A stretch of 56,742 nucleotides of DNA, counting the filler, from Jimgerdemannia flammicorona (Eukaryota): assembly GCA_003990765.1 (NCBI GenBank). It is 2 parts of 2 records of this genome, joined end to end, with 100 filler letters (N's around TTAATTAATTAA, not from the genome) between each part and the next. Parts side by side here need not be neighbours in the genome. Positions count along the whole stretch, not along the records: positions 1 to 28,323 come from RBNJ01000568.1; 1 more part is not named here. The stretch is one strand, 5' to 3'. The notes beneath the pieces are model-generated. The model searched no databases. It had not been told where the DNA came from and saw only the letters and a list, made by a program, of their open reading frames with translations. This document shows positions 1 to 28,759 of this stretch, one piece after another (the stretch's first letter is position 1; every line of letters begins with the position of its first letter). Position numbers and translations under genes: made by a program.

Positions 1-3000
1 CCCCCCCACTATCCTCTCTTGATTAAAGACCACTAGGTCATTAACTATCCCCACCTGTCCACTACTTTGTCTACAAATCTTTTCTACTAGATAGTAGTGA
101 TGCCCACTCTGGGGACCCCATCCAACTTACCACCCTGTCAACACATCTCCCACCAACTCCTCCCATCTTAACAAACTCTCTTATAAGTCCAGCTGTCACT
201 CCTCCTCAAATACAAAGAGCCAATGTCTGGCCAGCCCAACCCATATAGCTAAAATCTACCCTATAGTGAGCTATTTATTGCCCATCCCTCCCACCAACCT
301 AGTTCTCAGATCCTCTCAGCGACCACTCTCTCTATCTGACCTCCTCTTTACACTCAGCTGGTCCCCTATTGCTATCCAAAAGTCCCCCAGAACCTCACAC
401 TCTCCCAGCCAATGCTCTGGCATCTGTATAAATCCCCCAACTTATCCAACATTATAGCATGCCTCACATTTCAGTATGCTACCATCCACCAGATGCCCAG
501 CACAGAAATTCAACATAACATTCCTCTGGAGCATCTGCCACCATACTATCCAATACTTAGAAGAAAGCCACCTCTGCACCTCAGCACTCTATTTCCAGAC
601 TCCTGCCCAATCCCACTCCTTACCAATTCTCACTGCTTGCCAACCACCAGGCCAAAGATTCTGACCAAGTCCCCTCTGACACTCCACTCTATCACTAATA
701 TCAAAGGCAATTAGGGGAGTACCCCCCAGAAGCAGTCTGTCCTATCTCTATATTGCTGGACCCCACAGCATCTCCCCTTCATTACCACTCTAGCATAGGT
801 CTATGCAGTGTGCTCTATCTGCCACCCCCTATCAGAAACCTTTATACTGCAGCCTATTGCTTCCATCCAGGTTCACCAGGGAAAGCAAATCTCCTGAGAC
901 CCCTTTTGGGAAGAATCTCATCTCCCATACCTTCTGCATCAGTAGCACCCATCCCCCTCCCCTCAGTTCTACCACCTGCTTTAACCACCAAGCTCTCAGG
1001 CAATGCAGCCTCTTAGGAAAGTCTACCAGTCCTAGCCCCCCTCAAACTACTGACAATGAAAGAGTATCCCAGCTGATCTGGGATCACCTTTCAGCCCAAA
1101 TCTAATCTCTAGCTATCTTCATCAGTCTCTTCACCACCCAAGCCAGAAAGTCTAAGTAATAGGTAATATACTACAGCTTAGGGAACCAGTAGAGATTCAG
1201 AATCGAAACTCTGCCTACCAGGGAGATGTGGCAACCTCCTCAGCCTTGAAGCACCTTTCCCCAGATAGCCACCCTCCTCTCCCACCACATCCATAGCAAG
1301 GTTGATCTATATACCAAAAGAAAAATGCCCAGATACTGTACTATCTCTCTTGCTGGGACAATTGTTTCAATGACATTCCCACCCACTAACCCATTTCCCA
1401 ATACTATAGTCTCATACTTATGCCAGTTGAGCTTCACTTCAGAGTATGCCTTATACTATTCTACTATCTCCTTAAGAGCCTCAACATCTACCACTAATCC
1501 AAGTCCAACCACCATGTTATCTGCAAAGACCCCCATCTTCTACACTACACTATAAATAGTGAGCCCTGCCACTCTCCACTGAATCCTATCTATTAAAGGT
1601 TCTAATGAAAGGGCATATAGAATAGGAGACAATGGGTCCCCCTGAGGAACTCCTCTCCTCAAGTGAAATACCATGCCTCAGTGGCCATTACACATTAGCA
1701 CCACCCTACTACCCTCCAACAGATTCAATATAAAAGCTTGAAACAATGGAAGAACTTCTATTCTATCTAACACCTTGCCCAGCCACACCTGCTGAATATA
1801 GTTATAGGTCTTCTCCTGGTCCAAAAAGACTAGTCTCCCATTCAATCTACTAGTCCTTGCTCCTTCAATGACACCATAGACCCAGGCCATCCCATCTCTA
1901 ATAAGTCTGCTTCCAATAAAGCCCTACTGCTCCTTACCCAATATCTGTTGGACAACTCTCTATAATCTCACCACAATCACCTTAGTCACCATCTTCCTGT
2001 CTATATTCAGAAGTATGATTGGCCTCTAGTTCTTCCAATCCTCTCTCCTTCCCTTGTCCTTATACAACAGGGCCACCAGCCCCAGGTCCTGCCCTCCCAT
2101 CCACTGACCCCTCAAAAGAACAAGATCACAGAGGGCCGCCATCTCTCCTAACACCCCAGGGACCTATACCATCTTCTTCCAAAAGTCTCAAGATAGACCA
2201 CCCTCTCCTGGTGCAATACCAAGCTTAGTTGCTGCAATGACTCTCAGAACCTCCTCCTCTTGGACTGGAAGGATCAAATCCCCCAGGCTCTCTACTAGCA
2301 GTGGCTCTCAGTTCTCCAGAGTATCTCCAATTGCCTCTGCATTGGCACCCCCTTTCTCCTCACTCCAACAGACCCCACCATTGCTCCTTCAGCAACCCCA
2401 AGATCTGTTGCATACCATGTATCATTTCCCCTTCAGCATCAAGGACTCCATCCCACTAGTAGTATACTCTTCTTGCCCTTTAAAAGTATCTAGATGGCCT
2501 CTCCCCCTCCTCAAGCCCCTGCCACCTCAACCTAGCTACCATTTCTTTCATATGTGTCTCCTCCTCCTCTCTCAACATCTGTTGCAGTTCTATTATCTCT
2601 AGTCTAACTCATGCTAACTGTCAATCATCCACCTCATCTGAATTTATCAAATCAGCCCATTCTATCTGCAGTCTAACCAATCTATTAGACACACATCTCA
2701 CTCTTTTCCTCCTTTGCCTCCCAGCATCCCTACCAACTTCACTCTAGTAAACTCTTGTAGCTTCTTTCAACTTCATCTATCAGATGTTTACTTGCAAGCC
2801 CTCATATATCCAGCCTATGATCCTTTCCTGAATGTTCTCTGTCCAAGGGTTCCACAATACCTTCTTGGCCAGCAGGGAGGAGTTAAGACACTAATGTTCA
2901 GATCTATCTCCACTCTCCCCAAATCACTCTCACCCTAATAGTCCCCAACAGTCTGACCATAGGCACCACTCTACCTCTAGAGTCCTCCAAACATCCAGGC

Positions 3001-5775
3001 CCCAGCATTCAGCTGTCAGTATCCAGTCAATCCTTATCTCTAGACCATTCACCCAATATGTATAAACCCTCTTTTCTCCCCACTGTGTTCTGCTCACATC
3101 TCCTAAGGAGCTAAGGTTCTCCACCTCCTCTCATGCATTCAGACTGCCACTCCTTCCACCAGTACTCCTCCCTCTATCAGTTCTATCTAACTGAAGATTC
3201 CACACCATATTGAAGTCACCTCTCAGAATATCCACCCCATCCTCCAAGAATATGCCCTCCTCCAAAAGACTCTGAATCCATACAATCTGCTTACCCCTAG
3301 CTGCTGGGCAGTAATAAGAGCCAACTCTCACTGGCTCCTACCCAGGTCAACACCATTCCCCCTATACCAAACAATCACCCCAGCTCCTGATTCCACCAAG
3401 ATCTCCTTTATCCCTCTGTACCAATATTGCCACTTTGCTAATCCAAGCTATAGCTCCTCCCTATTCTCTAGCCCACTCTACTTGATCCACCTCATCTTCA
3501 CAGCATATGTCCTGTAGCAGAAAAAGATCAGCCTCTAATCCCTTAAGCTAAGTAAAAATGTTCTTCCACTGCCCAGATCCCCATAACCCATTCACATTCA
3601 GAGAAAAAATATTAGTTGTACTATTTATTAGAAAGAATATTTAGAAGTAGTATCCAGCTCATCCTCTATAAGTCCACATCCCTCCCCTCTTGAGCCACAT
3701 CTAAGTTATGTTTGACAGCCAATTCCTCCTCCTCAGCCTCCCTTGCCTCCAATCCAATCAGCAGTTCAGCTATCTCCCCATCCTCCTTTTCTTTAAATTT
3801 CTCATGATAATCCAGGCAGGCCTCCTGCCAGAGTTTCAGCCCATAATACTCTACTCAACAGAAGGTGGCCCTCTCACCAGCAACAACAGCTAGCTCAGCC
3901 TCTCTCTTCTTATTAACCTCATACCCCTCCTCCTCCAGAAGAATCACAAGTACCTCTACCTTTAGCACCTCCACCACTCTATCTCCATGCAGAATCCATG
4001 CCCAATGCTCCTTACTCATCACTCTCAGGTCTACTTCTCCCAACTCTTCAGCCACAAAGTTATTCATCATCCAACACATCTACAGTAGGTTCCCCACCTC
4101 CTTTCCTCCTGGCATCACTGGCCTCCTAGTATCCAGCATAGTGGTATTGGTCTCCACACTTGCTGTCTCATCCCACTCCTCCTCCAGAACATCCACCAGT
4201 TCATTCTCACCAACTGCCACCATCTGTCCCCCTTTTGCCATATCAGGAACTCCAAAGTGAACTCACTGGGCACTATGCATCAGTACATTCTCCACCACCT
4301 TGCTCCTCCCAGCTGGATCCCTTCTGATAAGAGGAGGAGAAGTGCTATCCAATTCCTCTTTCCAGACCTCAAATGTACCATTAGCATATGAGTCATTGCA
4401 TGGCATCTTCCTGGCCCCATCCAGGTCCTCCTCCCCATTCTCTCCTCCTTTACTAGCCCAGACACTTACCTCAGCCCCTCTAGACACTTCAGCTCTACCA
4501 GTATCCTTCTTTGTCTCTCTGCCTATACTCGCTAATAACTCTCTCTGTCTCTTGAACTCTTGAGCCCTCTCTCACTGCCTCTTGTCCATATGAATATGCT
4601 TCCTATTCACAATCTCCAAATGTGTAGCCTCTTCATATATCTTTCCAGCCTTTGCCCTCTGCTCAACTGCCCCACTCATCTCCTCTAGGGTCTTCAGCAG
4701 ATCCTCCTTCTCCTCCTCACTCCCCTTCACCCTAGACATCTTACAGATGAAGGCCCCCCACAATATAACTGAAGATCAGTCACTCATCTTCCCAGTAATC
4801 TCTCTTTCTACTAGTCTAATCCTGACATCAATATCCCCTGTCCTGAAAGTGATCCCCTCCTACATCTGGAACTCAATATTGACCATATTGCCATACTCTA
4901 CCATCACCTCCTCTACCCTCCTCCTAGTCTCAACCTTTGTTACCATAGGTACCCCCTTTACCAGCAACTGAACCACCCTGAGGTCCTACCTCAAACATCA
5001 CACCATAGGAACCACTATCTCTCCTATTGCTACTCTAGTCTTCAAAGCTTCCTCCAGTGGACCTGCCTTCTCAAAACCCACCTCAACCTCTTTTAGTCCC
5101 TTCAGAAACTTCACCAATACAGCCCCAGCCACTTGCTCCAAGATAATCTCCAGAACCATCCTTACTGTCACAGCCAAGCTCCAGAAGTACAAGGACACTG
5201 CAAACTCTAAGATTGACTTCTTGAGTAACAGTGCCACTGCCAGCCCCATCACACTATCTGCCAGGTCCCCCTTCTTCTTTGGGTCCATCTGCCTAGTCCC
5301 TCTATCAGTAGTCATATCTGGATTTTTTTCCAGATTCTCAGTTATACCACTATCAGCAGTCCCCCCCCTACTCTCAGCTACTACTCCACTAGCCCTTCCC
5401 TCCACTGGCTGAGGTCTAGTACCTCCCACTTCTCCTTCTCTCTGATTTCTCTTCCTCTCCATCCATCCACTATGAGATCCAACAGGCCATCCACTATTCT
5501 TCAATATATCCACCCTCCCCTTCTGTCCTCCTGCTCCTCCCCCAGTACTACTACCACTGCCTGAGCCACCCTGCCCACTTGGACCACTGAATGACCCCAT
5601 CCCTAATCCATATTCATGTCTAACATATTGCCATTTGAAGGCTCTAGGTCTACCCAACCTAGTACACATATCAGCTTGCTTGTTGGTTGCTATTACCTTA
5701 GTACCTTTCTCCAATAAATGCTTGAAAGTATGTTGTAAAAGTGTGTATAATATGAGTGATAATTGAGAAAGATGT
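1..5775 (-). mobile_element. Decayed L1/Tx1-like non-LTR retrotransposon (LINE A), nearly full length; 3' end lies just outside the window
   Basis: Minus-strand fragments: ORF1-like region about 5714-3650; APE endonuclease motifs SLNVNGL (~3600), GDFN (3131-3331), RIDWIL/SD (2930-3124); RT motifs FLDQEKTY (1678-1890), KLN..K/YLG (1240-1437); C-terminal EACYN...EHW...EC zinc-finger remnant (~390-470). Many in-frame stops. The 5' end begins ACATCTTTCTC at 5775. Confidence 0.92.
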
Positions 5776-6836
5776 AGGCTAGCTATTGTCTAGCAGCTTG
5801 ACTATACTAAATACAGCAGAACCTAATGTGGCTTATATCTCATTCTGTACACCATGCTCTCTTTACTACTAGGAGGAACTCAACTATATACCAATGACTA
5901 AAGATATATATCTGAAACTCCAATATATATATAAGACCATACTCAAGCTAAATAGAATAACCCCTACCACTCTAAGTGGAAATAACAGGTAAAGAAAAAT
6001 CCTTCTTAAGAAAAAGAATGATGGGTAAGACCTAGTTCTCTCAGATAAGATAAGTAGAGGACTTATATGTAAGGTGAGAGAAGACCCCCAATACTCTACT
6101 ACTCAAGCCTACAGGCCTTGATTATATTACTATATCAGCTCTCAGTTCTAGTTAAGTATAGCTAAGACACCTGATCTGGGTAGCCTTGGACCCCCCAGCT
6201 ACTCTCAATGACTGGGGCCCAATTTCATAAATTGCCAAAAGCAGACACCTACTACCTAACTACCCCATATCAATCAAAAGGCCCCACTAAAGTAGTACCT
6301 GCCCAGTCCTAATTATTACCTCCAGCCTGATATCCTACTGGTCCACTGTTATTACTCTTTCTCCTATCTGTAATAGTCATCTCTCCTCCCATCCTAACAC
6401 TATCTGAAAAATAGTCACCTATACTAGAACTATACTCACCAGGAAGCTCACTAAAGCCAGAGAGCCCCACCACAGGTACTGAGGATCTGTAAATAACCTA
6501 TACTAAGCACTTGATGCCCAAGGTTAGCTGACTCCCTATATAACTCATATTATACTGAGATGATATCTTGTTGGTAACAGCAAAAGGAAGAAGATGCTAC
6601 ATCAAAATGAGTATACCCTAGATATAGCTGAAGACACCAGATACTATAAAAAAGTAAAGAAGACACCAATCAGACACCAATAAAAGGGCAACTCATCACC
6701 ATTACTCTCTTCTCACTATACTCATGCAGATACAGTAAACTATACTAGGGTAGAGAGTAAAAAGATAGGAGAAAGGAGACCCAGACAGTTGTCTTCCAAA
6801 ACCACATGACTGGTATGATAGCAGAGAAAGGAGCAG
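5776..6836 (-). mobile_element. 1.2-kb poly(A) retroposon family, copy 1 (3' tail missing, abuts the 5' end of LINE A)
   Basis: Colinear with 33594-34791 and 44069-45257 (e.g. gacctagttctctcagat..gataagtagag, caaaaggaagaag, gttgtct.ccaaa) and ends at the same 5' point (gagaaag). Confidence 0.85.
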
Positions 6837-7499
6837 TAGTCAGATCTGATAGACTATAAAGATAATTATTTTCTCTAGATTGACTTGTGGTTTTATATTA
6901 TCTGCTTTTTTTATAACAGAGGTATCTAGATAGTAAACTGATTCCTCATAATTCATTTTGAACTTGTGTGACTAGTTGTGACTGGTTTCTAAATTTATAT
7001 AAGATTTCTTAATAAGGTAAGATACAATGATACTGCTGCTACCAAATGTAATAATTCTAGTTTCTTTAAGAGAAAGCAGCTAAATCTGATAGTTCTAATA
7101 GGTCTAAAGTAGCTTAAAGAGATATTTGTAGGTTTAAGTATTCTCAAAAGAATTCTGAGAGAAAATATTCTAAGCTTTATTTAAGTAGAAAATAAGAATA
7201 TTTATATAAGATCTGAAAGAAAGATCTGAAAGGATTTTGGAAAAGAAGAGAAAGGCCAAGAAATGGATTCTTAGCAAAGATGACTAATAGAATTCTACAA
7301 TGTTTCAAAAGGTTCTATAACTAGATACTTAGTACTACTTAGTACAAAAATATTCTAGTAATTTCTTAGTACTAAGAGAAGATTTCTAGATACTCAAAAG
7401 ATACTAGAACATAGTAGAATAATCAAGAAAAGACAAGAAAAGACTAGTAGAAAAGATATAAAAAGTACTAAGACTAAAATATAACTATGAAATTATTAT

Positions 7500-10400
7500 A
7501 CTATAGATAAGCATAGGCTGTATATGAATATACCTCATACTCTAAGATATCTCCTTTTACTAAATATTCTGACCTATAGTTCAATATCATATTGAACTAT
7601 AAGAGTCTCTACTATACTATCCAGAACTTGGGAGAAATCCACCTTACCACCTACTTGCTTCAAGACCAAATACTATTTCAGTTTTACTTTTTACTGATCC
7701 CCACTCCCTATCAGATCTCTGGCTACAAATATCTCCTATACTCCTGAAGACATTCTACACCATCTTCTAAACTAAAATTATCCTATGTCTTCTAACAGAA
7801 GATAGTCTCATCTCTATATCTGGAGTCTCCAGTCTATCTCTCCCTCATTCCTTTACCACCAGAGGCCAATTTATAGAGCACCATCAACCACTTCCCACCA
7901 GAATATTCTATAATATATCTTCTGACTTTTCTCCAGCACTACTAGTAAGAGCAAGTCACCAGACATACCATGGAGAGAGAACTGTACCTCCCATACTTTC
8001 TGCATAAGAGACACCCACTCTCAGTCTCTTAACTTACTAGCTTACTTTAGCCATTATATCCTCAAGTAGTATAGATACTTGGTGAAGTCCACCAGATCCA
8101 GCTCTCTCCAGTCTACTGATAATGTCAATATCTTCCAGCCAATCTGACTTTACTGCTCTGCCTATATCCACATTCTGGCTGTCTTCAATAGTCTCTTAAC
8201 CACTTATGCTAAGAAGTCTAAGTAATACTTCAGATACTTTAACTTAGGTAGCTAATATATATTCAACACTATTACTCTTTCTACCAGAGAGATATATCAG
8301 CTGCCCTATCTCAGGAGAGTATTTCTCTACTCAATCAGCTACTACTCCTACTATCTCTGAGACAACAGAGAACTATATACTGAGAAGTAGATTTTTAGAT
8401 ATCAGACTGTCTCTTCTATCAGGACAACTGTTCCAATCATATCCTTTCCTACTATTTCTCTATCTAGTACTAGGGTCTTGTACTTGTATCAGTTAAGCTT
8501 AGCATCTGAGCATCTCTCATACTATTCTACTATACTCTTCAGTATTGCTATATCCTCCACAGAACTCAGCCCTACTACTATACTATCATCAAAGGCCCCC
8601 ATCTTCTAGTTCACTCTCAGAATATTCAACCCCCCCATCTTATGTCTAATCCTATCTAATAAAGGCTCCAGAGAGAGAGTATAAAGAATCAGTAACAGTA
8701 AGTCTCTCTGTGGCACTCCTCTATTTAAGGAGAAAGACTCTTCCCTGTGATCATTCATCAGAATAGCTGTCTAACTCCCCTCCAACAAACTGATCAAAGA
8801 TTGTCTAAACTCTGAGAGAACCCTCATACATTTCAGTATCTCCTCTAGCTATACTCACTAGATGCTAATCTTGGTTCAGAAATACTAGTCAACCATCTAT
8901 CCTGATAGCATATACTCCTTCAATAACTCTGTATACCTATACTATCTCATCTCTTATCAAACAACCCCTGATGAAGTCTCTCTGCTCTGCCTCTAATACT
9001 TGCTAAGTTACTCTTTAGAGTCTAGCTATTAATATCTTTATAACTAACTTGTAATCTATATCCAGAAGTATGATTGGCCTCTAGTTCTTCTATTTCTCTC
9101 TTCTTCTCTTATCCTTATATAATAGAGCTACAAGACCCAAGTACTGCTCCCCAATCTAAACCCCTGAGCTAATAACTTCATCACACATCTACATCATCTC
9201 CTCTAAAGCCAACTCTACACTCACCATTCTCTTTCAGAAATCTCAAGATAAATCATCCTCTCCTGGACCTAATCTAAGACTTATCATTACTAATACTCTA
9301 TAGATCTCCTCCTCTTAGACAGATACTCTAAGTTTACCTAAGCCCTCTACTGGAGCTAGGTACCAATCCTCTAGCTGCTGTTCAATGTCCAATGTATTCT
9401 CTCTACCCTTCTCCTCATTCTATAATCTCCTTTATCAGAAACTCAACTGGTCTAAAATCTCTGGAGTTCTGATAACTATCTCTTCTGTCTCATCCAATAC
9501 TCCTTTCTACTGCTGCTTCACTCTTCTCACTTAAAGCAGCCTTGACAAGAACTTCATAGACCTCTCTTCCTTCTCTAAGTCCTACCATCTCAGCTGAGCT
9601 ACTATATCTTTTATCTGCAATTCTTTCTTCTGTCTCAGCAGTCACTTCAGTTCTTCTACCTCTAGCCAGGCCCACTGAACTCTTTAATCCCCCTTCTTTC
9701 TATTATTCAGCAAATCAGCCTACTTTTCCAATAGCTTCTTCAATCTCTGGGAAGCCCACCTTAAACAACTCCTCCTCTGAGTATCTCCTCTCTCTCCCTA
9801 TTTCTCTTCAGAACTACTGAGTATCAGATTTCAAATACTACTACTGATCTCCAATCTCCAGCTCCCATGTCCTCTAGCTAACAATTCTGAAGCTAATGTC
9901 TACCATCTATATATCCCACTAGGAGGGCTTCCCCAGCAATAAAGTATTTAGATACTAATGTCTAGGTCCCTTCCCACTTCTCTCAAATTTTCCACAACTC
10001 AGCAAACTCCAGTGATCTGACTATAGGCAACAAACTATCTCTAAAGAACCCCAGACATCTACTCTCCAGCACTCAGTAGTCAAGATCCAGTCAATCCTTG
10101 AATCCAGCCCTGCCATCTAGTAAGTATAGATCCTGCAATCTCTCCACCCAAGATGCTCAGCATCTACCAGTGAGCTCAGCCTCTCAATATCCTTCCAGTC
10201 TTCCATATCTCTACTCTTATTAGCTATCTCTCTCCCACTATCTATCCTGTCTAACTGCTCATTCCATATTATATATATTAAAGTTACCACCCAGATAGTC
10301 AATCTTCTCTACTACTATAGTATCTGCATCTTATAGTCCTCTTATCTACTTCATCCACTCCCTCTTTTCTGCTGAGCAGTAATATGACCCAACAGTTAAG

Positions 10401-10550
10401 AGACTCCAGCCTGGCCTCCTCTACACTCTCCACACTACTTAGCTCTCTCAATGTCCAATGTCTCCAATATCCCCCATACTCTTCTGAATCAGAATACCTA
10501 TCTGATCCTATCATATGACCACATCCCCCCTCCATTCTTATCTAGTCTAA
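7500..10550 (-). mobile_element. Decayed L1/Tx1-like LINE B (endonuclease-RT part of ORF2), boundaries approximate
   Basis: Homologous to LINE A ORF2: identical agaagtatgattggcctctagttcttc block at 9064 and 2009; GNFN (GDFN) at ~10280; RIDWIL at ~10090; RT region ~8400-9100. Heavily stop-riddled. Confidence 0.85.
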
Positions 10551-11254
10551 TATATCAATTTTTTTTTATTTTTTTTTAAAGTCTCTTGGACTTTGCTATT
10601 TATTACCCATCTATTATATATAATTACAATATCTTCTCACACTACTCAATATCCCTAGAGAGCTCTCTCCCCCACACTCTCATGCTTAAAAACCATCTTG
10701 CCACTCTTCACACCAACCTTTCTCTCACTCTGCTCACAAATTTTCTCCACCAAATAGTACTGCCAACCTCTCTGCAGACCCCATCCCAGTCACCAGCCTA
10801 TCAAGATATTCTCCAGCAACCCTTCTCACCTTACCAACCACTCCTCCAAACTCAAACACTTTCCTTCTTCAAATACAAATAGCTAGTGACCTGTCAGTCC
10901 TGTCTATATCACTAATATCCACCCAAAGTCAGCCACTCCCTCCCTATCCCCTCCCACCAATCTATCTCTCAAATCTTCCCAATGCTCCCACTCACTATCC
11001 CCCCTATACACAACACTCAACCTATTCCCAACTACTAACCAAAAGTCTCCAAGTACCTCATACTCTCTCAGCCAATGTTCTGGCATCTGCACAAACTCTC
11101 CTTTCTATCCTACATTATAACACTTCTCACAATCAAAGTTCTCTCCTTCTACAAGATGTCTTGAGTGAAAGTTGAGTATAACATTCCTCCACAGTATATA
11201 CCATCAAACCACTCAGTATTTGAGTGGTAACCATCATCTTATCTCTACACTCCA

Positions 11255-13265
11255 TATAAGAGGGTTACTTTTTAGAATAATCATTACATAGTTCTGGAAG
11301 GGTTTTCTGAAAGTTCTGGATATTCTGGAAGACTGTTTTCTTATGGTCAAGATCAATTTCATATGGAGTATGTCCTCTATGCTTATTGATTTCAAGATCG
11401 GGTTGACATCTCAACTAAAGTCCTTTTTCAGACTAGTTCTGAATGTTCAGGATTTTCTGTATTTCAGGAAGTTCAAGAAACTAAGACCAGCTTAGTTGAA
11501 TTGGTGTATTGCTGCAGACAATACTTAATTAGGAAATTTTGTGATGGGGTTAGGAGTGGGACCTAACAGAGAGCAGATTTACTTAAGGTTAGTTTGTGGA
11601 TTATTAAATAGGTTTATTCACTATTCACGATATTGCTATACTAGGAGTAGTTGTGTGAAGGGATATTGTGGGGAAGTATTCAGGAATGTTCTTGTGTATT
11701 TGAGTCTGTTTAAGTCTGAGATTCTGAGGTCTGAGAGAGGGGGTATTTATACTAGTAAGGGACTATCTGAGCTATGCTAAATATGGATGTAGCACTAAGT
11801 ACCTTGCTGAGTCAGTTCACAGTCACATCATACAAGGCTAATCTAACTATACTATAACTGCTAAGCTATTTGTAGATTTAGATGCTGTCTGAGTAGTCTT
11901 CAATGACATCACCATCAATGACATTATCTCTGATGAAGTAGTCATCTAGGAAAAGTGGTTCGTGGATTACTTCTCCTTGTTTACTGAGGTAATAATATAT
12001 TGGAACTTTGTCACCATCCCACAGGATAGCATCATCTGTCTCATATGCTGGATAAGGTGTTGGTGGGTGAAGGAGGGGTGTATTGTCTTCACTTTCATTA
12101 GATTTGCTGTCTGCATACCTTCTATAAGTTACAGTACTATAAGTTGCAGAGTTGTAGTAAGCTGACAGCTATGATTCATGTCACTCGTACTCAAGTGGTA
12201 GAGTGGTTGGTTCAATCTCAAGAGTTGTCTGAAGGTACAGATTGTGTTCTCTGATCTCTTCATTATAGTTGAAGTAATTGGGGGTGAACACAGATTGGTA
12301 TTTGTACCAGTGGTCATTATCCCAATAAGTCTCATATTTGGTTATGAACTGTTGTAAGTTCATTGGTAAGGTTGGCGGTGTGATCAGGGTTGGTAGAGAT
12401 CCTTGGCTTGAGGTCATGTTGGCATTAGAGGGATCATTGTCTTCTGCTTCATCTTCGTCGAAGTGGATTATATCATAGATATCCTTCATAGCATATCTGA
12501 CTTGGGGCATTTGTAGAATATGGTCATTGGGGTGTGGGAAGGTTCTGTCGGTGGTCTGGACATATTCAAGATACTTGTGGTTGAGTTTTTGAATCATATT
12601 GTCAATTTGGCTATAGGACAGAGTAGTAACCATTTCACTAGTAGTAACTCGGAGGCAGAGAATAAAGGTGCTGTACTTATAGAAGAGTTCTCGGTATTTG
12701 TGGGCAATGATCTTCTGGTGTTGAGACATCTGGGTGATATCTGTATCATGGTGGTATTCAACCATGTCTTCTAGGAGATAGCTAATCTGGTAGTAGCTTG
12801 AGATTTGTCCAATTCAGTGGGCTTCATTAAGCATGTTCAGGGCATTCCATCGGGCTTCCATGAAGTAGAGGGGTACTAGGCTATGAATATTCATGAGGGG
12901 CAGAGGGGGTGTGGCTCAGTTGACAATAGCATTCCAAATGTCAGCGCAGATGCGGTTGTAGATCTCAGTGGTCATATTTGTATATGTTCAGAAGTTGTAG
13001 TTGTTGTTTGTTTTGGTTCTCTGTTTTGATGTGTCTTAGTGCCCAGTATATATGCATTTGGTCCTGATTGGTAAGATTCCGTTTGTGTGAATCTTGTGTT
13101 CTGTGACTTCATGTTGACTCAGCTTTGTGTGCTATGACTTCTGTTTGACTCAGCTTCATGATTGAGCAGGTGATTTCCAGATTTGTTCAGCTATTACATG
13201 TGATCTTGGTGGCTTGTTCAGAGGGTGATGTGTGATTTCTGTGGCTTGGAGGTTGTGCACTTACA
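11255..13265. mobile_element. 2011-bp solo-LTR-like element with 5-bp TSD
   Basis: Termini TATAAG (TGTAAG in the second copy) ... CTTACA; flanked by CTCCA at 11250-11254 and 13266-13270; interrupts LINE C ORF2. Confidence 0.85.
11878..12975 (-). pseudogene. 365-codon ORF of unknown function inside the solo-LTR-like element
   Basis: One frame from ATG (MTTEIYNRICADIW...) to TAA (...DVIEDYSDSI*) with no frameshift and only four internal stops (three TGA, one TAG), all explainable as CGA/CAG C->T; the TAG site reads CAG in the second copy. Includes ORF 12181..12765. Confidence 0.75.
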
Positions 13266-15288
13266 CTCCAGGCCCAGACTCTATTCTAGTCCCACTCTTC
13301 TCCAATTCCTACCACCTGTCAGCTACTAGGCCATATATCCTGTCCCATCCCTCTCTGGTACTCTACTCCATTGCTAATATCAAAGTCTATGAGAGAGATA
13401 CCCCCAGCAATACTTGATCTCATCTCCACATTGCTGGGCTCCATGGTGCCTCTCCTTCATCTCCCTGCCAGCAAATCTCAATACAGTGAGCCCCATTTAC
13501 TACCCCCCACTAGAAACTCTTATATCTCATTTACTCTCTATTTGGAAGTATAATCAAGGACAGCAAATCTCCAGTAGCTCCTCTTGGTGAACACTGCATC
13601 TCTCAGACCTTCTTCATTAGAGAAATCTAGCTATCACCTCTCAGTTCTACTACTCTCTTCAGCTACCATACTTGTAGACAATATAGCCTCTTTGGGAAGT
13701 CAACCAGTCTAAGGCCTCCTCCAGCCACTAACAATGATAAGATTTCTCAGCTAATCTGACTCCTCTGCTTAGCCCAGATTCCACCTTTTGTCAGCTTCAA
13801 TAACCTCTTCACTATCTAGGCTGGAAAGTCCAGATAATATACCAAATACCACAACTTCAGTAGTCAGTAGACATTCAAAATTATAATGTATCCTGCCAAA
13901 GACAGGTGACAGCCTCTCCAATCTCTTAGGACCTCCCCCCAGATAGCCACTTGTTACTCTCACCAAATGTATGACAAGACTGACCCATACATAGAGAGAT
14001 AGATACCCAAGTACCTCACAGCCTCTTTAGTAGAGACAATTGTTCCAATGACATCTCCTCCCACCAGGCTATTATCTAATACCATTGTTTCATACTTATG
14101 TTAGTTAAGTTTAGCCCCAGAGTATACTGCATACCACTCCACTATTTCCCAGAATTCCTCAATATCAGCAATCAATCCAAACTGACTACCATATCATCTA
14201 CAAAGACACCAACCTTCCACACAATACTGAATATGGAGAGCCCCACTATCTTTCACTGAATTCTATCCAACAATAGCTCTAAAGACAGAGTACACAAAAT
14301 CAGGGACAGGGAGTCCCCTTGGAGAATGCCTCTTCCCAGAGAAAAGGCCACCTCTCTATACTCATTGCATATGAGTATTGCTCTACTCCTTTTCAGTAGA
14401 CTGATCATTGCCACTTAAAACTGCTGAGGGATACCAATCTTGTCCAAAACCTTCACCAGCCAAACTCACCATATATAATCATAAGCTTTCTTCTAATCCA
14501 AGAAGACCAGTCTCCCATCCAGTCCATAGGTCCAAGCCCCTTCAATAATGTTATATACTCAGGCCATGCCATCCCTAATGAACTGACCCCCTACAAACCC
14601 TTGCTGCTCCTCACCCAAAACTTGCTGGGCCACCTTCTGCAACCTTACCACTACTATCTTAGTAACCAACTTCCTGTCTATGTCTAGAAGCATGATAGGC
14701 TACCAATTCTTCCAGTTTTTTCTTCTACTCTTATTCTTATAAAGTAGTACCACTAGCCTCAGATCTTGCTCCCCCACCCACCTCCCTAACTATAGTACCA
14801 AATCACACATCACCATCATCTCTTCCAGTACCCCAGGTACTCCCAGCATCTTCTTCCAAAAGTCCCAGGGCAGACCATCCTCTCTAGGTACTGTTCCCAG
14901 CATAGTTGCAGCAAGAACCTGGTAAATCTCCCCCTCCTAAACTGACATTACCAAACTGTCCAACCCATCTACTTGTGGCAGGTACCAATCCTCCAAAGCA
15001 TGTGCAATGGTAGCAGCCATTGCTCCACTCTCCTCCTCACTCCACAAACTGCTCCACCTCTCCTTGAGTGAGTCCAAAATATCCTGTGAACTATGTACCA
15101 GTAGCCTATGTGAATTCAGTACCCCCTCCCACCTCTGCCTCACCTCCTTGCCTGCAGAATTTTTGAAAGATACTTAGATGGCCTCTCCTCCTCCTCAAGT
15201 CCCTGCTAGCATAATTGGGTAGCCAAACTCTACACCCATATCTCCTCCTCTTCTCTCAATACCTATCATAGCTCAGTAACCTCCATCT

Positions 15289-16976
15289 TAGTCTGGTATA
15301 CTCTCTACTTTATAGAAGCTTGATGGAATACTCTGAACATACTCAGCAAAGTCTATCAAATTGGACAAATCTCAAGCTACTACTATATTAGCCACCTCCT
15401 AGAAAACATAGTTGAACACTACTATGATATAGATATTACTTAGATATCTTAATACCAGAAACTCATTACTCATAAACACTAAGAACTCTTTTATGAGTAT
15501 AGTATCTTTATTCTCCATCTTTAAGTTACTACTACTGAAATGATTGTTACTCTGTCTTATGGCCAAATTGATGATATAGTATAAGAACTCAATCACAAGT
15601 ATATTGAGTATATTCCAATCATAGACAGATCCTTTCTACATTCTGATGACTATATCTTACAAATATCCCCAAGTTAGATATACTATAAAGGATATCTATA
15701 ATATAATTTAGTTCAATAACAATAAAGTAGAAGATAATAATCCCTCTGATACTAATATGACCTCTAGTTAAGGATCCATACCAGCCCTAATTACCCCACT
15801 AACTCTGTCAATGAACTTACAACAGTTTTTAACTATCTACAAGACCTATTAGAATAATAACCACTGGTATGAGTACTAATCTACATTTATGTCTAATTAC
15901 TTCAACTACAATGAAGAGACCAGAGAATATAACCTATACCTCTAAACAACTCTTGAGATTGAACTGACAATCTCACCTCCCAAGTACAAATAAAATAAAC
16001 CACAGCTACTAGCTTATTACAACCCTACAACTTATAGCACCATTATCTATAGAAAATATACAAATAGCAAATCTGATGAAAGTGAAGATAATGCACTTCT
16101 TCTCTACCCACCAACACTCTATTCAGCATATAAGACAGATGATATCATCTTGTAGAATGGTGATATGATTTTAATATACTATTATATAAATAAATAAGGA
16201 GATATCATTCAAGAATTACTCTTTTTAGATAACTACTTCATCAGAGATAATGACATCAATAGTGATCTCATTGAAAACTACCCAAATAGTATCTAAATCT
16301 ATAAATAACTTAGCAGTCATTGATATAGTTAGATTAGCCTTATATGATATAACTGCATACTGACTCAGCATCAGACAATCTCTTGATATATCAGTTCACA
16401 CTTATACTATGTGACTGTATTCTGACTTAGCAAGGCACTAAGTGCTACATATATCCATATTTAGTATAGTCCAGATAGCCTCTAAATATCCACTCCTCCA
16501 GACCTCAGAAACTTAGACTTAAATAGATATAAATAGATCCAAACATAAGAACAACTCCTCCACAATATTCCTTCATACAACTACTTCTAGTATAGTAATA
16601 GTATAAATAGTAAATAAATCTATTTAATAATCTACAAACCACTCTTAAGTAAATCTATATTCCATTAGGTCCTATTCCTAATCATATTATAAAATTTTCT
16701 AATTGGGTATTATCTGCAGTGATATGCTAATTCAACTAAATTGGGCTTAGTTTTTTAAACTTCCTGAAATATAAAAAATCCTGAATATTTAAAACTAGTC
16801 TGAAAAAGGACTTTAGTTGAAATATTAACCTAATCTTGAAATCAATAAGTATAAAGGATGTATTTTATATAAAATTGATCTTAACCTTAAAAAAACAGTC
16901 TTCTAGAATATCTAGAACTTCTAGAAAACTCTTTCAGAACTATATAACAGTATTCTAACTAAGTAACCCTCTTACA
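15289..16976. mobile_element. Second, inverted and truncated copy of the 2-kb LTR-like element
   Basis: Reverse complement of about 11255-12885; ends CTTACA at 16971-16976; more heavily C->T/G->A mutated than the first copy. Confidence 0.88.
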
Positions 16977-17669
16977 AAACTCACCTTTACTCTCTCCAAC
17001 TTCTATAAAAACTTTACTTAGACCACTTTAGTCATCTGACTCACAATTAAGCCTAAAACTATCTTGATCAGTACTACTAGTTCTCTGAAGTATAGTATAA
17101 TAGCAAATTTAGAGATTAATTTCTTAAGTAATGAGACTACTGTCAGGCTCATTATACTATCTATTAGATCTCTCTCCTCTCTATACTCCATCTACTTAGC
17201 TCTGTCTCCAATAGTTATATCTAGATTTTTTCTAGATTTTCTATTATATTATTATTAGTAATCATACCTCTACTCTCAATTATAGCTCTGCTAGCCCTTA
17301 TGTCTACCTTACTAAGCATTGACCCTTCAGCTCTCTCAGGACTTACCTTTCTTTTCTCTCTAGACTTACTATTCTTAGCACTTCTAGACTATCTCTCCAC
17401 CTTTATCTTATTGGTAAAGCTTATAGATTCTGACTCTCTACTGCTCACCAGGACCCCCCTGCTCACTTATATTACTAAAAAAGTCTATCTCTATACTGTA
17501 GCCTCTCTTAACATACTACTAACTAAAGGTCCCAGATCTGTCCAACCCAGTATACTTGTTAGAACTTTTGTACATTATTATATTACTAGTATCTTTTTTC
17601 TAAAAACTATGTAAAAAGTATTATAAGAAATTTGTATAATATAAATTATAATAGAAAAAGATATAGAGA

Positions 17670-18053
17670 TAACTCAATCTCTCAGTTATATAATTTATAT
17701 AATTATATAAAAAGTATAGTTATATAAATCTCTCAGCTATACAGATCTCTCAGCTATACAGATTTTACAATATACAGATCTTTTAACTATATTAAATAAC
17801 TTATAGAAAAAGAAGTCTTAACTTAGCTACTATATAGCTAGTAACCTTATATAAATATCTTTAGTATTTAGAGTAAATAAACCTCAGATTAAAATAGTTT
17901 AAGCAAAGAGATAAGAAACTAGTAAGCTTACAGGCAGATATACTTCAAACTCACTCACCCCTATATCTGAGAACTCTAAGAAGTCAAAGAAGATCAAGTA
18001 TTCAAGATAAAGAAATCTACTATACTTCTATTAGTATATATCTATTATATTAT
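17670..18053 (+). repeat. Decayed LTR fragment related to the LTRs of the Gypsy element at 30015-35779
   Basis: Shares gtaaataaacctcagatt.aaatagtt, cttcaaactcactcac and gtcaaagaagatcaag with 30300-30430 and 35595-35725. Confidence 0.75.
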
Positions 18054-18074
18054 AGTATATTAAGTTAAATTATA

Positions 18075-18396
18075 TATTAGATTGAGTTGTGTTTTAGGTT
18101 TCAGATCAGGTTTGGAATTTGGATCAGATTAAAGATAGATCATGTTTTTTTTCTAAGTCAGATTAAAGATGAGTTATATATATATATTTTTTATATTTTT
18201 TCTTAGATCAGATTAAAAATAGATCACATTTTTTTTTTAAGTTAGATTAAAGATGGGTTATGTTATTTTTTGGGTCAGGTTAAAGATGGGTCACATGTTT
18301 TTCTTAGGTTGGGATAATGACAGATAATGTATAATTCTGAGTTGGCTATTTTTCAGATTAAGTTTTAAGTTCTCAGGTCAGGTTTGCAGAGCACTA
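18075..18396 (-). mobile_element. Probable end of a hAT-like DNA transposon or MITE
   Basis: Minus strand starts TAGTGCTCTGCAAACCTGACCTGAG (a CpG-decayed ACCCGACCCG-type subterminal motif) followed by several imperfect copies of tcagattaaagatgggtca. No partner end or TSD seen. Confidence 0.4.
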
Positions 18397-20057
18397 CCCC
18401 TACCCCTCCTCTGTGATATATTTACCCTCTCCATCATTAACTATACATCTACTAGCTACCTATCCTTTAAAGTTGCCTTTGGCGCAATTTAGTATATCTT
18501 GCTTCGAAACAGGCGTGTTGAGATATTAATTTTCTTCATTATGTAAGCACGTGACATGTTTACGTCACACTTGTATACGCCAACATGCGACTTAATTACA
18601 TATTATCAATAAACACCCTTCTTTCCATCCGCTTCACTCCAGTATTCTGATTATCCCACAACAACGCGCACGCGTACTGGCGTTGCGCGTGCTTGCATGT
18701 TCTGTGCCTTTGCATAAGCGACAACTAGCATAAGTGAAAATGAAAAAAAGCATAAAAAGCACAAATTGTCCTGGACGAATTCATATGTAAATCCGATGAG
18801 ACGATAATTTAAATAACGCAAGAAAATGCAAAGCGTAATTGTATAATACAACTTTGATCTAAAATTCACATCTACCGATCCACACGACGCGTTGTACAAA
18901 CGAAGCCTTCCCAGCGCATTGCTTCAACAAGGCTGCGTGCGCAAGCAGGATGTGTGCGATGTTCTCGCAACGAGGAGGCCGACGAAAAAGAACCCCCTCC
19001 ATATACCGGGCGAGAATCTCGAATCGAGCGACAAATCGATCGATCGATAAGCGAGAGTTGCACGACAATGACAATGATATAATAAGCTCAAACAGGTCAG
19101 TAACATCGATCATGGTGATCGTCGGGGTGGTGATTATCGTGGTGGCGGGGCTAGTACAATCCGGATTTTTTGGCCTCCAACCGCACAGATTTTTAGCTTC
19201 TCCACAAGACGTTCGGGGTTGGGACGTCGGATGAGGGAAGCGACGGGATCGGTTCGGTTTTATTTATGGGATGTCATCGAGATATATGATAGCATTTTCT
19301 GATTACCGGCTTGAGAATCCGGGCATTTGTATTGTTTTATGGGCAGTCTTCGCCATCGATAGGGATAGCACGGTATCTGGCGAAACAGGTGATTCCACTA
19401 AAAAATAAACTCATCGAATCGTGGCCAAGGAGTTGATGGACCTTGTTGCGAGGGGCGGGGCATGCGGCGTTGGAGAGGGTCAAGGGCAGAAAGGGAGGTC
19501 TATCTTTGACGAATGGAGCGCTCATTTTGGAGTCAGCGTCTTCCATATAGGTTTTGTGTTGAGGTTCCGGGGCACTCTAAAATTCTCGGAGGGTGGGCAC
19601 GGATGGCTTGTGGTAGGTCAGGCGCTTAATAAATCTGGACTTGGGTTAGGCTGTTATAATTTTTTTTTTTTTCTGGTAGCGCTTATTGCCTTTTTTGCCT
19701 CCCACCTCCCCTACTCCTTCCCTTCTCCTACTCCTTCTCCTTCCCCTATTCTCTCTCCTGCTCCCTTCTCTACTTCCTTTTTTACTCCGTTCTCTACTCT
19801 CTCATCTACTCTCTCCGCTACTCCTTCCCGCTCCTTTCTCCCCTCCCCTCTCCCCTACTCCTCTCCCATAATGCTCGCCGTCAGCACCTTGGGATCTCTC
19901 CGCTCTTTGAGGCCGACCCAGACTCGCCCACACGGATCCGATAAAACACTGATCCGTCCGCCACTATCATATGACAGATAGAAGCGTCTAGAAGACGATC
20001 ATTTCGGCTCGCCAGAATTTCCGGTGACGACGTATCGACCATCTCCACTACCTGTGC

Positions 20058-21461
20058 TTGATTGTTGAGCATACAATGCTTGCGCTAGCGATAATCGTAG
20101 GAACTACAACAGTTTATTTATACAACACTCGCTATCGACATCTTGCCGAAAACACTTCTGCGTTACAACTTGTTAATCGGAACACCTATTTGATCTGTCC
20201 TAATATATACCCTATCTGCGAGACATTGATTGCGCCTCATTTCAGAGGTCAGGCTGCGGATTTACTATTTATTATGAACATAGATTTTTATGGCAACGCC
20301 CACGCCATTGACTCCGGAGGATCCGACGCAGACTCTGACGATTTGATACAAACTCCTGACGACTTGAACGAGCCCTACTATTCCGCGAAGTCGAGTTTTT
20401 GTCGGCTCGCCGCAAGCTCCTAAACAAATTCAGCACCGTTTCAGAAATTTCGTATTGAGGTTATTATCGGTGCCCACAACGATCTTGGAAAGTTTTGTGT
20501 CTGCCTCGACCCAGTTGCATGGTTCGACGTCTTTTTGAATGACATGAGCAGTACCGAAGCAGCGAGAATCGGTCGACAGTATATTTCAAATGTACGGCAA
20601 CGAGAAAGGGCTAACAATTATTCCGACGACGAAGAGAACTTCTACGACGAATTGTCTGACCCTGCCAATACTTACAGCATCTGCAAAGAATAGAAAAAAA
20701 AAAAAAAAAAAAAAAAACAGCGAGTGGTGTAGATACGGAAAAAATTATAGTAACTACCAATATTCGGATATTAACGGTTCTGGCTGCGGGGGTATGCCAA
20801 TGGCTCATATCATGATACTATTTCCGATAAAGGATTCACGCACCCAAGATGTATTGTCGACCTACGGCAAATCGAATGCGATTATGGAGACATTGATCGT
20901 ACACGGCCTTGGAACGGAGGCCTTTGACAACAAGTACGTCCTCACGTTGCTCCGAGAAACTATCCGCGAACTATTGTTGTTGCAGCCCGGGTAAAATAAA
21001 GCACTAATCCAATCATCTGATTTCTGGGAGGACCTCCTTGTTCTTCAAAAGATCTTTTGTTTCCATCAAGTATCATTCAATTCTGGAGAATGGGAAGAGG
21101 CAATCGAAAGTTCGCGACAAGTGTGCCACACCCACGCACGCCTACACTTTGACTTCATGACGTGGAAGCGAGTGGCGGACTTGGTGAAAGACCATTCGAC
21201 CAAACAACGGAGGCAAGCCGTTGGAGTATCGGCCCAAATTATCGAATTCAAGATTGTCAAGAACCGGAGCAGAATCGTTTACATTCCATGAAGATCGTCG
21301 AGGGGCAGAAGGCGTGGATGTATGCGATGGAGCATGCTATGGGGAGGATGGAGGAAATGGAGGGGAAGGGAGAGAGGATGAAGAAGGTGGAGGAGGGGAT
21401 CAAATGTATTATCGAATTGCTTAGCAGGCAAGCTTTGAAACATTATATTGTAAATGATTGA
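20058..21461 (+). pseudogene. Coding-like segmented region; hypothetical gene or pseudogene, family unrecognised
   Basis: Successive protein-like plus-strand frames (AADLLFIMNIDFYG..., KFRIEVIIGAHNDLGKF..., IMILFPIKDSRTQD..., KAWMYAMEHAMGRMEE...HYIVND*) in the CpG-rich island; they need introns or frameshifts to join. Confidence 0.35.
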
Positions 21462-22142
21462 ATGATGGGCCCGCATCGGCAGATATCAGAGATAAGGATT
21501 ATGCGTATGCGTAGGTGCTCATTATAACACGCGGGCAATATTTATGTAAGTATCATGCGAGGCCTTGTGGGAATATCACTCGATCTCAAGGCTGCTATTG
21601 ACAAGGTATTGAGCATGCGCTTCCGACGCACTCGCAATGGTCAATCCCATCCCGCGTCAAATCGAATCGCCGACTTCACTCGTCGAGCAATGCGGTTGTG
21701 CATATCGTATTTTGAGCATCTGGCGACGATTGTTATGTCATGGCCGCTGCATGCTTATATGATGGCGAAACTCGGCACCGCGTGGTACCGCATCGATTGT
21801 ACGCAATGAGCTTGGGCGATATTTGGACAAGCGATGATCGTATCTTTTCTTTGCGGAAATGGGCGCGCGGGTGTCAAGCATCCCACCCCGCTTTTTATTT
21901 TACTATCGACATGGAATCGTTCATTAATTTAAATAAATGTTTTATTATTGTTTAATCAATGCACCCGATGTCGATCTGCTAGGCTGCGTATGAACAATAT
22001 GAGCATCTTCAATTAATAAAATAAGTAAATAAGCTATGCGACATACACCGGGCCCAAAGTGGTAACCAATATATGTACATGAGCCCTACCCCAAATTCCT
22101 ATTTAAATGAATACTCTATACATATTGCGTTGCGATCGACAA

Positions 22143-22583
22143 CTAATTGCTCACATTCCCATCTACATCCATATTTGTAACGCGGCGATGAGCTTTCGAT
22201 GCGATTTCATCATCGGAGCTGTTGTTGGCATCGACTATCTCATTTTTTCGTCTGGGTTTTGTTTTCATCGTTGAGATGAGTTCGGGCGACGGATGCAGAC
22301 TTTGTTGGCCCGCTGCGGATGGGCTGATCATGCCTTTCGAGGGCAGGTCATGTGACACGAGTGCATGGACATGATCGCGTTCATATTGCTGACGTGGTCG
22401 CACAGTTTTCTGAGAACACAGCACACTAACGATTTGGAACCTTTTGATGTAGCGCCAAATATTTGTGTCGGTATGCCGCTTGCTTCCAAATGGTGAAGTG
22501 TGGCCAGTTAAGTCGTGCGTGGTAGTGAGGAGGTCGTGAGTCGCGCAAAGTCTGAGAATTGTGTCGTCGATATGATGTGTCAC
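22143..22583 (-). CDS. Possible exon of a hypothetical protein
   Basis: 146-codon ORF ending near a GTGAG donor-like site; no recognisable motif. Confidence 0.2.
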   Translation of the reverse strand: MTHHIDDTILRLCATHDLLTTTHDLTGHTSPFGSKRHTDTNIWRYIKRFQIVSVLCSQKTVRPRQQYERDHVHALVSHDLPSKGMISPSAAGQQSLHPSPELISTMKTKPRRKNEIVDANNSSDDEIASKAHRRVTNMDVDGNVSN

Positions 22584-25130: not shown

Positions 25131-25633
25131 GTGATATGGAAACGAAATGAGTGGATTTAATTTGTCTGGAGTTGCTGATGGGTTAGTGTTTTTTATAAAA
25201 TAAAATAAAAATCTTTCGCAATCTATAGATGAGTGGTCTCAGTTGTGATTGATAGATTGACGGATGGATGACGACAGTGTTCGGTGGGTATGAGACCCGG
25301 CCACACGGGGCGCGTTGTGTCATGTGCTGGGTGACTGCATTGGATTCCAGCCCCAAGTATGCATGGTGAGAGTTGTCTCGGCCGTCGGAAAGGCGAAAAG
25401 GGGGTTTGAAAAAGGAACAGAGCGCGTGAGTTACATCATCGAACAAGCACCTTGGACGTCAGGTGAGTGTGGCACCCCTTTTGGAAGGACCCTTTCTTAC
25501 CACTCTTGAACTGTAGCATCGTGAGCTCTTTCCCCAACATAATACACACCCAAAATTTGGAGCTCAATTGCCCGCTAACCTCGAACTCACCCTCATACTT
25601 CCCCACCCGTCGCAGTTCACTCCACCCCTTGCA

Positions 25634-28218: not shown

Positions 28219-28323
28219 GTACTCTTTCTCCCTCCTCTTTCATCACGCTTGATAAATTTTGAAAACACAACCCCAACCGGTTATACCGCAATTATATAAC
28301 CCGATACAATCCTCCCCCCCCCC

Positions 28324-28758: not shown

Positions 28759-28759
28759 G

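Follow-up and report, generated by a model that had tools for sequence, protein, structure and literature searches.

Sharply bounded, context-dependent C-to-T hypermutation confined to repeats in a genomic window of the Mucoromycotina fungus Jimgerdemannia flammicorona

We analyzed a 56.7-kb stretch of DNA (56,742 nucleotides; hereafter, the window) from Jimgerdemannia flammicorona (Endogonales, Mucoromycotina, phylum Mucoromycota), in which three repeat blocks, one of them carrying a Ty3/Gypsy retroelement, alternate with two gene islands (Table 1). C-to-T hypermutation in the window is confined to the repeats, to a degree far beyond chance. The evidence base consists of this single window, two relatives of the retroelement from a metagenome, and published gene tables. 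An initial annotation of the DNA had described the phenomenon and made part of its reasoning conditional on a host outside the Dikarya. The host is indeed a non-Dikarya fungus, and the translation of the exon at positions 25858–27015 (386 amino acids) matches a J. flammicorona protein at NCBI with 100% identity.

Relative to the expectation from the base composition of each block, CpG dinucleotides are nearly absent from the repeat blocks (observed/expected ratio [o/e] 0.00–0.05) and abundant in the gene islands (1.16–1.19), in agreement with the initial annotation. Stretches without any CpG extend over 13080–18483 (5.4 kb), 28302–36163 (7.9 kb, spanning an N gap), and 43982–46424, whereas within the islands the mean CpG spacing is 15–16 bp and the maximum gap 157 bp. 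The boundaries are as sharp as had been claimed: self-comparison places the limits of repeat homology at 18271, 36153, and 44064, and the nearest island CpGs lie at 18483, 36163, and 43982, so that the switch from repeat to island takes 10–210 bp at the three measurable boundaries; the fourth (28302) abuts the N gap. The most extreme segment, 35780–36150, has a G+C content of 7.8% and is, as previously noted, almost pure A/T. Coding sequence was considered as the cause of the CpG abundance in the islands and ruled out. An island intron and poorly expressed or untranscribed island DNA have CpG o/e values of 1.07–1.43, so the contrast is one of repeat versus nonrepeat rather than noncoding versus coding DNA. 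Gene island 1 is bordered by two runs of N (28324–28367 and 28380–28423; 44 bases each, 12 bases apart), and the boundary between island and repeat is not assembled there.

Table 1. Features of the window, in order of position. LTR, long terminal repeat; o/e, observed/expected ratio; ts/tv, transition/transversion ratio.
Feature	Positions	Strand	Description
Repeat block 1	1–18483	.	CpG 18 versus 666 expected, o/e 0.027; 14 of the 18 CpGs in 11399–13080
Family A copy 1	1–5774	+	Unclassified; + strand with 34.5% C and 12.3% G; 60–65% identity to copies 2 and 3
Family C copy 1	5775–6834	+	
Family A copy 2	7580–11256	+	
Family B copy 1	11257–12886	+	Least mutated repeat of block 1; G+C 0.39
Family A copy 3	13264–15305	+	
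Family B copy 2	15286–16974	-	Inverted, more mutated; G+C 0.295
A+T-rich relic	16975–18300	.	G+C 0.29; related to 29.5–30.5 kb and 35.4–36.0 kb
Gene island 1	18484–28302	.	Acyl-CoA-binding protein–ankyrin gene and ABC transporter; CpG 660 versus 571 expected, o/e 1.155
Acyl-CoA-binding protein with ankyrin repeats	23995–24915		Gene island 1
ABC transporter	25858–28031		Gene island 1; N-terminal membrane extension
Repeat block 2	28424–36162	.	CpG 0 versus 160 expected, o/e 0.000; includes pair F and family C copy 2 as well as the segment with 7.8% G+C
Pair F	29977–30487 and 35268–35780		Repeat block 2
Family C copy 2	33588–34969		Family C copies 72–75% identical, ts/tv 2.4–5.8
Gene island 2	36163–43982	.	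RING-finger gene; CpG 497 versus 419 expected, o/e 1.186
RING-finger protein	40012–41234		Gene island 2
Repeat block 3	43983–56742	.	CpG 24 versus 493 expected, o/e 0.049
Family C copy 3	44064–45421		Identity and ts/tv as for copy 2
5' LTR, Ty3/Gypsy element	45664–47209	+	Starts with TG, ends with CA
Ty3/Gypsy interior	47210–54733	+	14 in-frame stops within the region of pol homology, which extends to 54195
dUTPase domain	50787–51692		Upstream of the reverse transcriptase; Pfam PF00692, E = 1e-15
Reverse transcriptase domain	51875–52660		Ty3/Gypsy interior
3' LTR	54734–56595	+	170 transitions and 6 transversions versus the 5' LTR

The Ty3/Gypsy element of repeat block 3, whose pol is 45% to 49% identical to Ty3/Gypsy polyproteins, is flanked by two LTRs that share one template and were identical at integration, so that the differences between them arose after insertion and in place. 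The transition columns of their alignment comprise 70 columns at 35 sites where TG in one LTR faces CA in the other, 7 columns with CG opposite TG, and 93 columns that are not derived from CpG; just 3 and 7 CpGs are left in the two LTRs. The 35 TG/CA sites indicate that ancestral CpGs were lost through changes on one strand in one LTR and on the other strand in its partner, as had been proposed from the strings tatgtgta and catacaca, which are found exactly at 45769 and 54839. The companion statement that LTR ends had changed from TG to TA and from CA to TA is not borne out by the pair examined, both members of which retain TG and CA at their termini. We infer that each 1.5-kb LTR held roughly 70 CpGs at insertion, about 95% of which have since been lost; this number equals the CpG density of the gene islands, which suggests that new copies arrive CpG-rich and decay where they land.

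Once the CpG-derived sites are removed, a strong excess of transitions with a CpA bias persists. The 93 remaining columns, set against 6 transversions overall, divide into 59 CA/TA, 23 CC/TC, 7 CT/TT, and 4 mixed columns, corresponding to 59/231 informative sites for CA, 23/118 for CC, and 7/191 for CT (Fisher test: CA versus CT, p = 1e-10; CC versus CT, p = 1e-5; CA versus CC, p = 0.23). Conversion to per-copy probabilities (p = r/(2 - r)) yields estimated losses of about 0.15 at CpA, 0.11 at CpC, 0.02 at CpT, and ~0.95 at CpG, the counts of CpT changes and of transversions being small. A CA/TA difference cannot result from one CpG deamination, since the path from CG to TA needs a second hit at CpA or TpG, and the targeting of cytosines outside CpG is therefore real, irrespective of the ancestral state.

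Some of the in-frame stops in the element are consistent with such changes. The stops at 52661 and 52985 (TAG) stand where tryptophan occurs in 72/88 and 31/70 homologues, respectively; the stop at 53914 (TGA) replaces a position with arginine in 16/38 homologues, and that at 53590 (TGA) a position with arginine or glutamine (21 each of 52). At 52817 and 53185 (both TAA), every other aligned copy of the family has C, which points to a change from CAA to TAA. The proposal that stops arose from CAG, TGG, and CGA codons is accordingly supported for 6 of the 14 in-frame stops, the other 8 being undecided at the 45% to 49% identity of the homologues.

The remaining repeat families of the window were defined by self-comparison and pairwise alignments. 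Transitions and transversions number 310/54 in pair B, 216/42, 251/43, and 266/112 in the family C comparisons, and 56/13 in pair F, with ratios of 4.3–5.8 in pairs B, C1–C2, C1–C3, and F and of 2.4 in C2–C3. For the old family A, the counts are 663/497, 485/238, and 485/334 (a ratio of just 1.3–2.0). Copies in the window mostly differ by transitions, in agreement with the initial annotation, whose paired strings are exact (12718–12766 on the minus strand and 15407–15455 on the plus strand), and between the two family B copies, 235 differences have T/A in copy 2 where copy 1 has C/G, against 75 in the opposite sense. Across pairs B, C1–C2, C1–C3, C2–C3, and F, the fraction of changed sites is 0.56–0.67 for CA, 0.40–0.70 for CC, and 0.14–0.19 for CT. 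Pooled trinucleotides give 0.40–0.56 for NCA, 0.29–0.49 for NCC, and 0.09–0.15 for NCT, with a weak effect of the 5' base; family A, being old, shows a less distinct contrast (CA 0.31–0.51, CC 0.22–0.35, CT 0.24–0.35). Symmetric methylation of the CHG type was rejected as a source of the pattern, with CAG at 0.46 compared to 0.39 for CAA, 0.53 for CAC, and 0.59 for CAT, and CTG at 0.11.

Neither family A nor family B could be classified: their open reading frames (ORFs) gave 0 matches in Pfam, and a 210-amino-acid ORF of family B had weak Atlas matches (0.78). The family B copies are mutually inverted and lie on either side of family A copy 3; on the left, 14 CpGs (11399–13080) persist, whereas the right copy keeps none and has a G+C content 10 points lower, so that adjacent copies of one family can differ greatly in decay. 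Over 11257–13263, a stretch longer than family B copy 1, CpG o/e is 0.18. Family A (1–11256 and 13264–15285) has 30% to 35% C and 10% to 13% G on the plus strand, a GC skew of about -0.5, which simple G-to-A editing does not explain because A and T are nearly balanced. Among its surviving bases, 0.48–0.58 of the G's stand in ApG and 0.35–0.47 of the C's in CpT, and the context rule may have amplified an initial pyrimidine-rich bias of this family.

The two strands are affected alike, with fractions of 0.255 and 0.239 in the LTRs and 0.445 and 0.449 in pair B. Neither LTR contains strand-coherent mutation tracts, as judged from the number of C>T and G>A runs, which matches that in shuffled data (37 versus 43.6 ± 4.4 and 37 versus 37.1 ± 4.0). 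The window thus shows the spectrum, its origin after insertion, an equal impact on the two strands, and the boundaries of the affected DNA. One alternative explanation is an AID/APOBEC-like DNA deaminase, or editing of the RNA or cDNA of the retroelement before integration, which would likewise appear as C-to-T hypermutation of retroelements and would accord with the dUTPase carried by the element, since retroelement dUTPases are generally associated with the exclusion of uracil from cDNA. We consider this explanation very unlikely: differences between the LTRs of one integrated copy originate after integration; the strands are hit equally; the specificity resides in the 3' neighbor, as for DNA methyltransferases, whereas APOBEC enzymes read the 5' neighbor, which has little effect here; and unclassified non-LTR repeats are affected too.

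True repeat-induced point mutation (RIP), in which duplicates recognized by homology are mutated in bursts by an enzyme in the sexual cycle and methylation is a by-product, would account for the extreme transition excess (170:6 in the LTR pair), for a rate of CpG loss estimated at some two orders of magnitude above that of CpT, and for the location of all mutated DNA of the window within repeat blocks. The enzyme could be a DIM-2-class paralogue acting like the RID-independent pathway of Neurospora, or another enzyme. DIM-2 alone is reported to mediate RIP in Neurospora (10.1101/115501), and the published gene table for J. flammicorona contains three paralogues of the DIM2 class (PMC9963178). 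However, C>T and G>A changes are interleaved as in the shuffles rather than grouped in strand-coherent bursts, the CpG-first spectrum is unlike both Neurospora RIP and DIM-2-mediated RIP, with its CpA preference, and stretches that are single-copy within the window are CpG-free as well, although copies may exist elsewhere in the genome. Measured against canonical RIP, the window has the repeat-concentrated C:G-to-T:A transitions and has neither the CpA-dominant dinucleotide order nor the strand-coherent tracts. We regard true RIP as improbable, if still worth serious consideration. The RIP-like label of the initial annotation is correct insofar as there is an excess of non-CpG C-to-T change in the repeats of a non-Dikarya fungus; classic RIP does not suit the spectrum, in which CpG is fastest and, in the copy pairs, CpC nearly equals CpA and CpT is largely spared.

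A series of sequence compositions ordered by age, which requires no polarity of mutation, points to the same contexts. From the genes through the young element to the old relics, the share of cytosines that precede T rises from 0.21–0.22 to 0.36–0.39 and 0.50–0.63, and CT/AG o/e from 0.80–0.83 to 1.21–1.33 and 1.60–1.71; in the relic at 16975–18400, 61% of the remaining cytosines precede T. The corresponding CA/TG o/e values are 1.00–1.05, 1.21–1.31 (fed by CpG decay), and 0.67–0.69, and those of TA are 0.75–0.81, 0.67–0.82, and 1.18–1.21. Context-blind mutation cannot raise CT/AG to 1.6–1.7, and the cytosines before T must therefore be survivors.

These values also speak to an explanation by ordinary CpG methylation decay of the DNMT1/DNMT5 type, as in Basidiomycota, combined with normal A+T-biased drift of dead elements and without any non-CpG targeting. 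CpG is the dominant target, as such decay would have it, the CpG contrast is accompanied by the expected TpG and CpA products, young elements have a CA/TG o/e of 1.2–1.3 and a (CpA+TpG)/(ApC+GpT) ratio of 1.3–1.76, and the C>T fractions of the three-way comparison described below are similar at CA, CC, and CT. Non-CpG transitions are nonetheless in clear excess (93 columns versus 6 transversions in the LTR pair), the contrast reaches 7-fold for CpA/CpT and 5-fold for CpC/CpT, and the CT/AG o/e of 1.6–1.7 and CA/TG o/e of 0.67 in the relics cannot be yielded by context-free mutation. We therefore hold an explanation restricted to CpG to be quite unlikely.

The mutation order in the copy pairs is CG >> CA >= CC >> CT, which is not that of Neurospora RIP, where CpA stands well above CpT, CpG, and CpC. 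The preference for CpA is firm and the rank of CpC less certain, while the sparing of CpT is suggested by the copy pairs together with the composition series. The order CG > CA > CC with avoidance of CT is seen in the LTR pair, in the five other pairs, and in the composition series, but not in the three-way comparison.

The direction of change was assessed with relatives of the Ty3/Gypsy element from a soil-metagenome run, in which 3,191 contigs are 80% to 99% like the element and differ from the window at 765 transition and 89 transversion places. Among the 40 best-supported of 1,038 rows, 33 are transitions, and at 26 of these 33 a T or A in the window stands against C or G in every other copy; the 3' neighbor at these 26 private sites is A at 16, T at 6, C at 3, and G at 1, and 16 of them now read TpA. 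Two metagenome loci of the same Gypsy family (78% to 79% nucleotide identity), L001 (4101 bases) and L005 (2297 bases), are less decayed than the window copy (CpG o/e 0.35 and 0.30, respectively; TA o/e 0.47–0.49). In the three-way alignment, C>T plus G>A changes compare with T>C plus A>G changes as 128/39 on the window branch, 42/41 on that of L001, and 40/49 on that of L005, and T>C at TpA amounts to 1/65. Parsimony with three copies within the window reveals no polarity (178/158 in family C and 354/263 in family A), as would be expected from saturation of hot sites. The presence in metagenome contigs of relatives of this Gypsy family (window positions 44000–54733) that have decayed less indicates that CpG-bearing, possibly active copies occur in nature. 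A further metagenome relative, P0097, also combines a dUTPase with a reverse transcriptase.

Taken as a whole, we consider it reasonably probable that heterochromatic repeats are methylated by DIM-2-class enzymes at CG, CA, and CC and that deamination follows. Under this scenario, the repeat blocks would be silenced, cytosine-methylated chromatin, with methylation at CpG, weaker methylation at CpA and CpC, and hardly any at CpT, probably through DIM-2-class methyltransferases, which belong to the DNMT1 superfamily. Thymine would then replace the methylated cytosines: CpG would be lost first and almost wholly, to TpG/CpA, CpA and CpC would decay more slowly, to TpA and TpC, and C before T would survive, so that elements would slide from ~42% to 47% G+C to less than 10% and accumulate stops in their reading frames. 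The silenced domain would end ~10–210 bp past the last repeat, as at the three boundaries, leaving the adjoining genes with a CpG o/e above 1. From the sequence we infer methylation as the intermediate and the acting enzyme; deamination may be spontaneous or enzyme-assisted, and targeting may extend across the heterochromatin or be triggered by homology. Where the initial annotation offered a repeat-targeted mutator or strong non-CpG methylation, the methylation half is the better supported, and the spectrum fits a DIM-2-type preference better than Neurospora RIP.

Published gene tables provide candidate enzymes. Dataset S1 of a survey (PMC9963178) lists, for J. flammicorona AD002, the DIM2-class JGI proteins 471264, 479070, and 483080; the three proteins, of 1187, 1038, and 1085 amino acids, all have a C5 methyltransferase domain, and a BAH domain is listed for those of 1038 and 1085 amino acids. 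The same source reports DIM-2-like proteins in Endogonales and Glomeromycota and describes RID (RID-1) as conserved only in Pezizomycotina.

Several observations weigh against methylation by DIM-2-class enzymes followed by deamination. The methylation itself is read from the mutation spectrum, and the rate of CpG loss, estimated from few events at ~140 times that of CpT, looks high for purely spontaneous decay of 5-methylcytosine. In the polarized three-way test of the coding region, the window branch has 37/226 changes at CA, 29/190 at CC, 25/181 at CT, and 14/37 at CG, and the sparing of CpT is absent (CA 0.16, CC 0.15, CT 0.14); the CpT changes are about twice those predicted from the LTR rates plus a context-free background. 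The 80 transversions on this branch indicate that most of its changes represent ordinary subfamily divergence before insertion, which dilutes the signal. The 26 private window sites favor CpA (16), and not CpC (3) over CpT (6). Mutations linked to Dim2 in Zymoseptoria are reported at CA and not at CG (PMC8016269), whereas CpG is lost fastest here, and DIM-2-mediated mutation in Neurospora is described as strongly CpA-specific and as spreading into single-copy DNA (10.1101/115501), in contrast to the sharp boundaries of the window. Finally, J. flammicorona is absent from the DNMT1-class rows between Dichotomocladium and Endogone sp. in Dataset S1 of PMC9963178.

In transposable elements (TEs) of Zymoseptoria tritici, Dim2-dependent 5-methylcytosine is reported to favor CG over CA and CA over CC and to be nearly absent at CT, and Dim2 promotes C>T mutation in repeats during mitosis with no need of RID (PMC8016269). 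The site order of that methylation is the order of mutation found here in the copy pairs, and in both cases the process is confined to TEs and inactivates them through C>T changes. In Zymoseptoria, however, CA is reported as the site of over 98% of newly arisen C>T mutations, and CpG is not highly mutated (PMC8016269), whereas in the window CpG is hit first and nearly completely, CpC is hit almost like CpA, and the host belongs to Mucoromycota rather than to the ascomycetes. In Neurospora, RIP can also proceed in the absence of RID through DIM-2, DIM-5, and HP1, with a very strong CpA preference (10.1101/115501). Both there and here, C>T mutation of repeats leaves A+T-rich relics with stops, and a DNMT1-superfamily enzyme is involved in Neurospora; the window differs in its order (CpG >> CpA >= CpC >> CpT), in having no strand-coherent runs, and in its sharp boundaries, DIM-2-mediated mutation in Neurospora reportedly extending into single-copy DNA.

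CpG-targeted, RIP-like hypermutation of TEs has been reported in Basidiomycota and attributed to methylation (PMC3318451, PMC4352252, PMC4014442). The TE-confined CpG depletion in fungi without RID is common to both; here CpA and CpC decay strongly too, with relics down to 8% G+C, and the enzyme set reported there is DNMT1-RFD plus DNMT5, compared to the DIM-2 class here. Closer in taxonomy, Phycomyces blakesleeanus, a Mucoromycotina fungus with DIM2 and DNMT1, is reported to methylate TEs at CG and CHH and not at CHG, with genes unmethylated (PMC11258239). The absence of CHG methylation there fits the missing CHG effect here; methylation is reported in that source without a mutational consequence, whereas in J. 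flammicorona it is the mutational footprint that is seen.

The gene islands that adjoin the decayed repeats hold real, expressed genes, as follows from the splicing of the intron at 40348–40523 of the RING-finger gene in RNA contigs of the organism. The RNA contigs (X1 and X2) cover the genes at 40–42.4 kb heavily and the Gypsy interior at 47.4–54.7 kb almost not at all, a gap in contig cover that proves nothing and from which no conclusion about silencing is drawn. The closest named relatives of the ABC transporter, in Podila, bear the odd label "homocysteine S-methyltransferase."

No comparable analysis emerged from a literature search that paired Jimgerdemannia or Endogonales with methylation, RIP, or hypermutation, the species genome paper (10.1111/nph.15613) and the main survey of fungal methylation lying outside its scope. 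RIP signatures are said, in a statement citing another paper, to be undetected in Mucoromycotina (PMC8647823), and a kingdom-wide screen from 2025 describes RIP-like repeat signatures as unique to ascomycetes (PMC12543289). J. flammicorona is included in the latter screen, which, as described there, applied k-mers to scaffolds longer than 50 kb, and the assembly given there for the species comprises 35,354 scaffolds; such a cutoff could readily have hidden the signal. In the window, the repeats of a Mucoromycotina fungus for which DIM-2-class enzymes are listed show strong C-to-T hypermutation that depends on sequence context and has sharp boundaries.

If the pattern holds genome-wide, it would bear on the origin of RIP and would offer a natural test of the mutagenicity of DIM-2-class enzymes outside the ascomycetes. 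Age estimates for transposon bursts would be affected as well, in Endogonales and probably in Glomeromycotina, since the decay of CpG, CpA, and CpC would inflate Kimura-type distances several-fold. More tentatively, Endogonales may possess an enzyme-driven, RID-independent repeat mutator based on DIM-2-class methyltransferases, which would hit CG, CA, and CC and spare CT, a possibility that we put forward without favoring it. Were it true, a RIP-like defense would predate the Dikarya, with the RID-based RIP of ascomycetes as a later specialization, and such a defense would coexist with a genome of ~230–240 Mb of which more than 77% is repeats.

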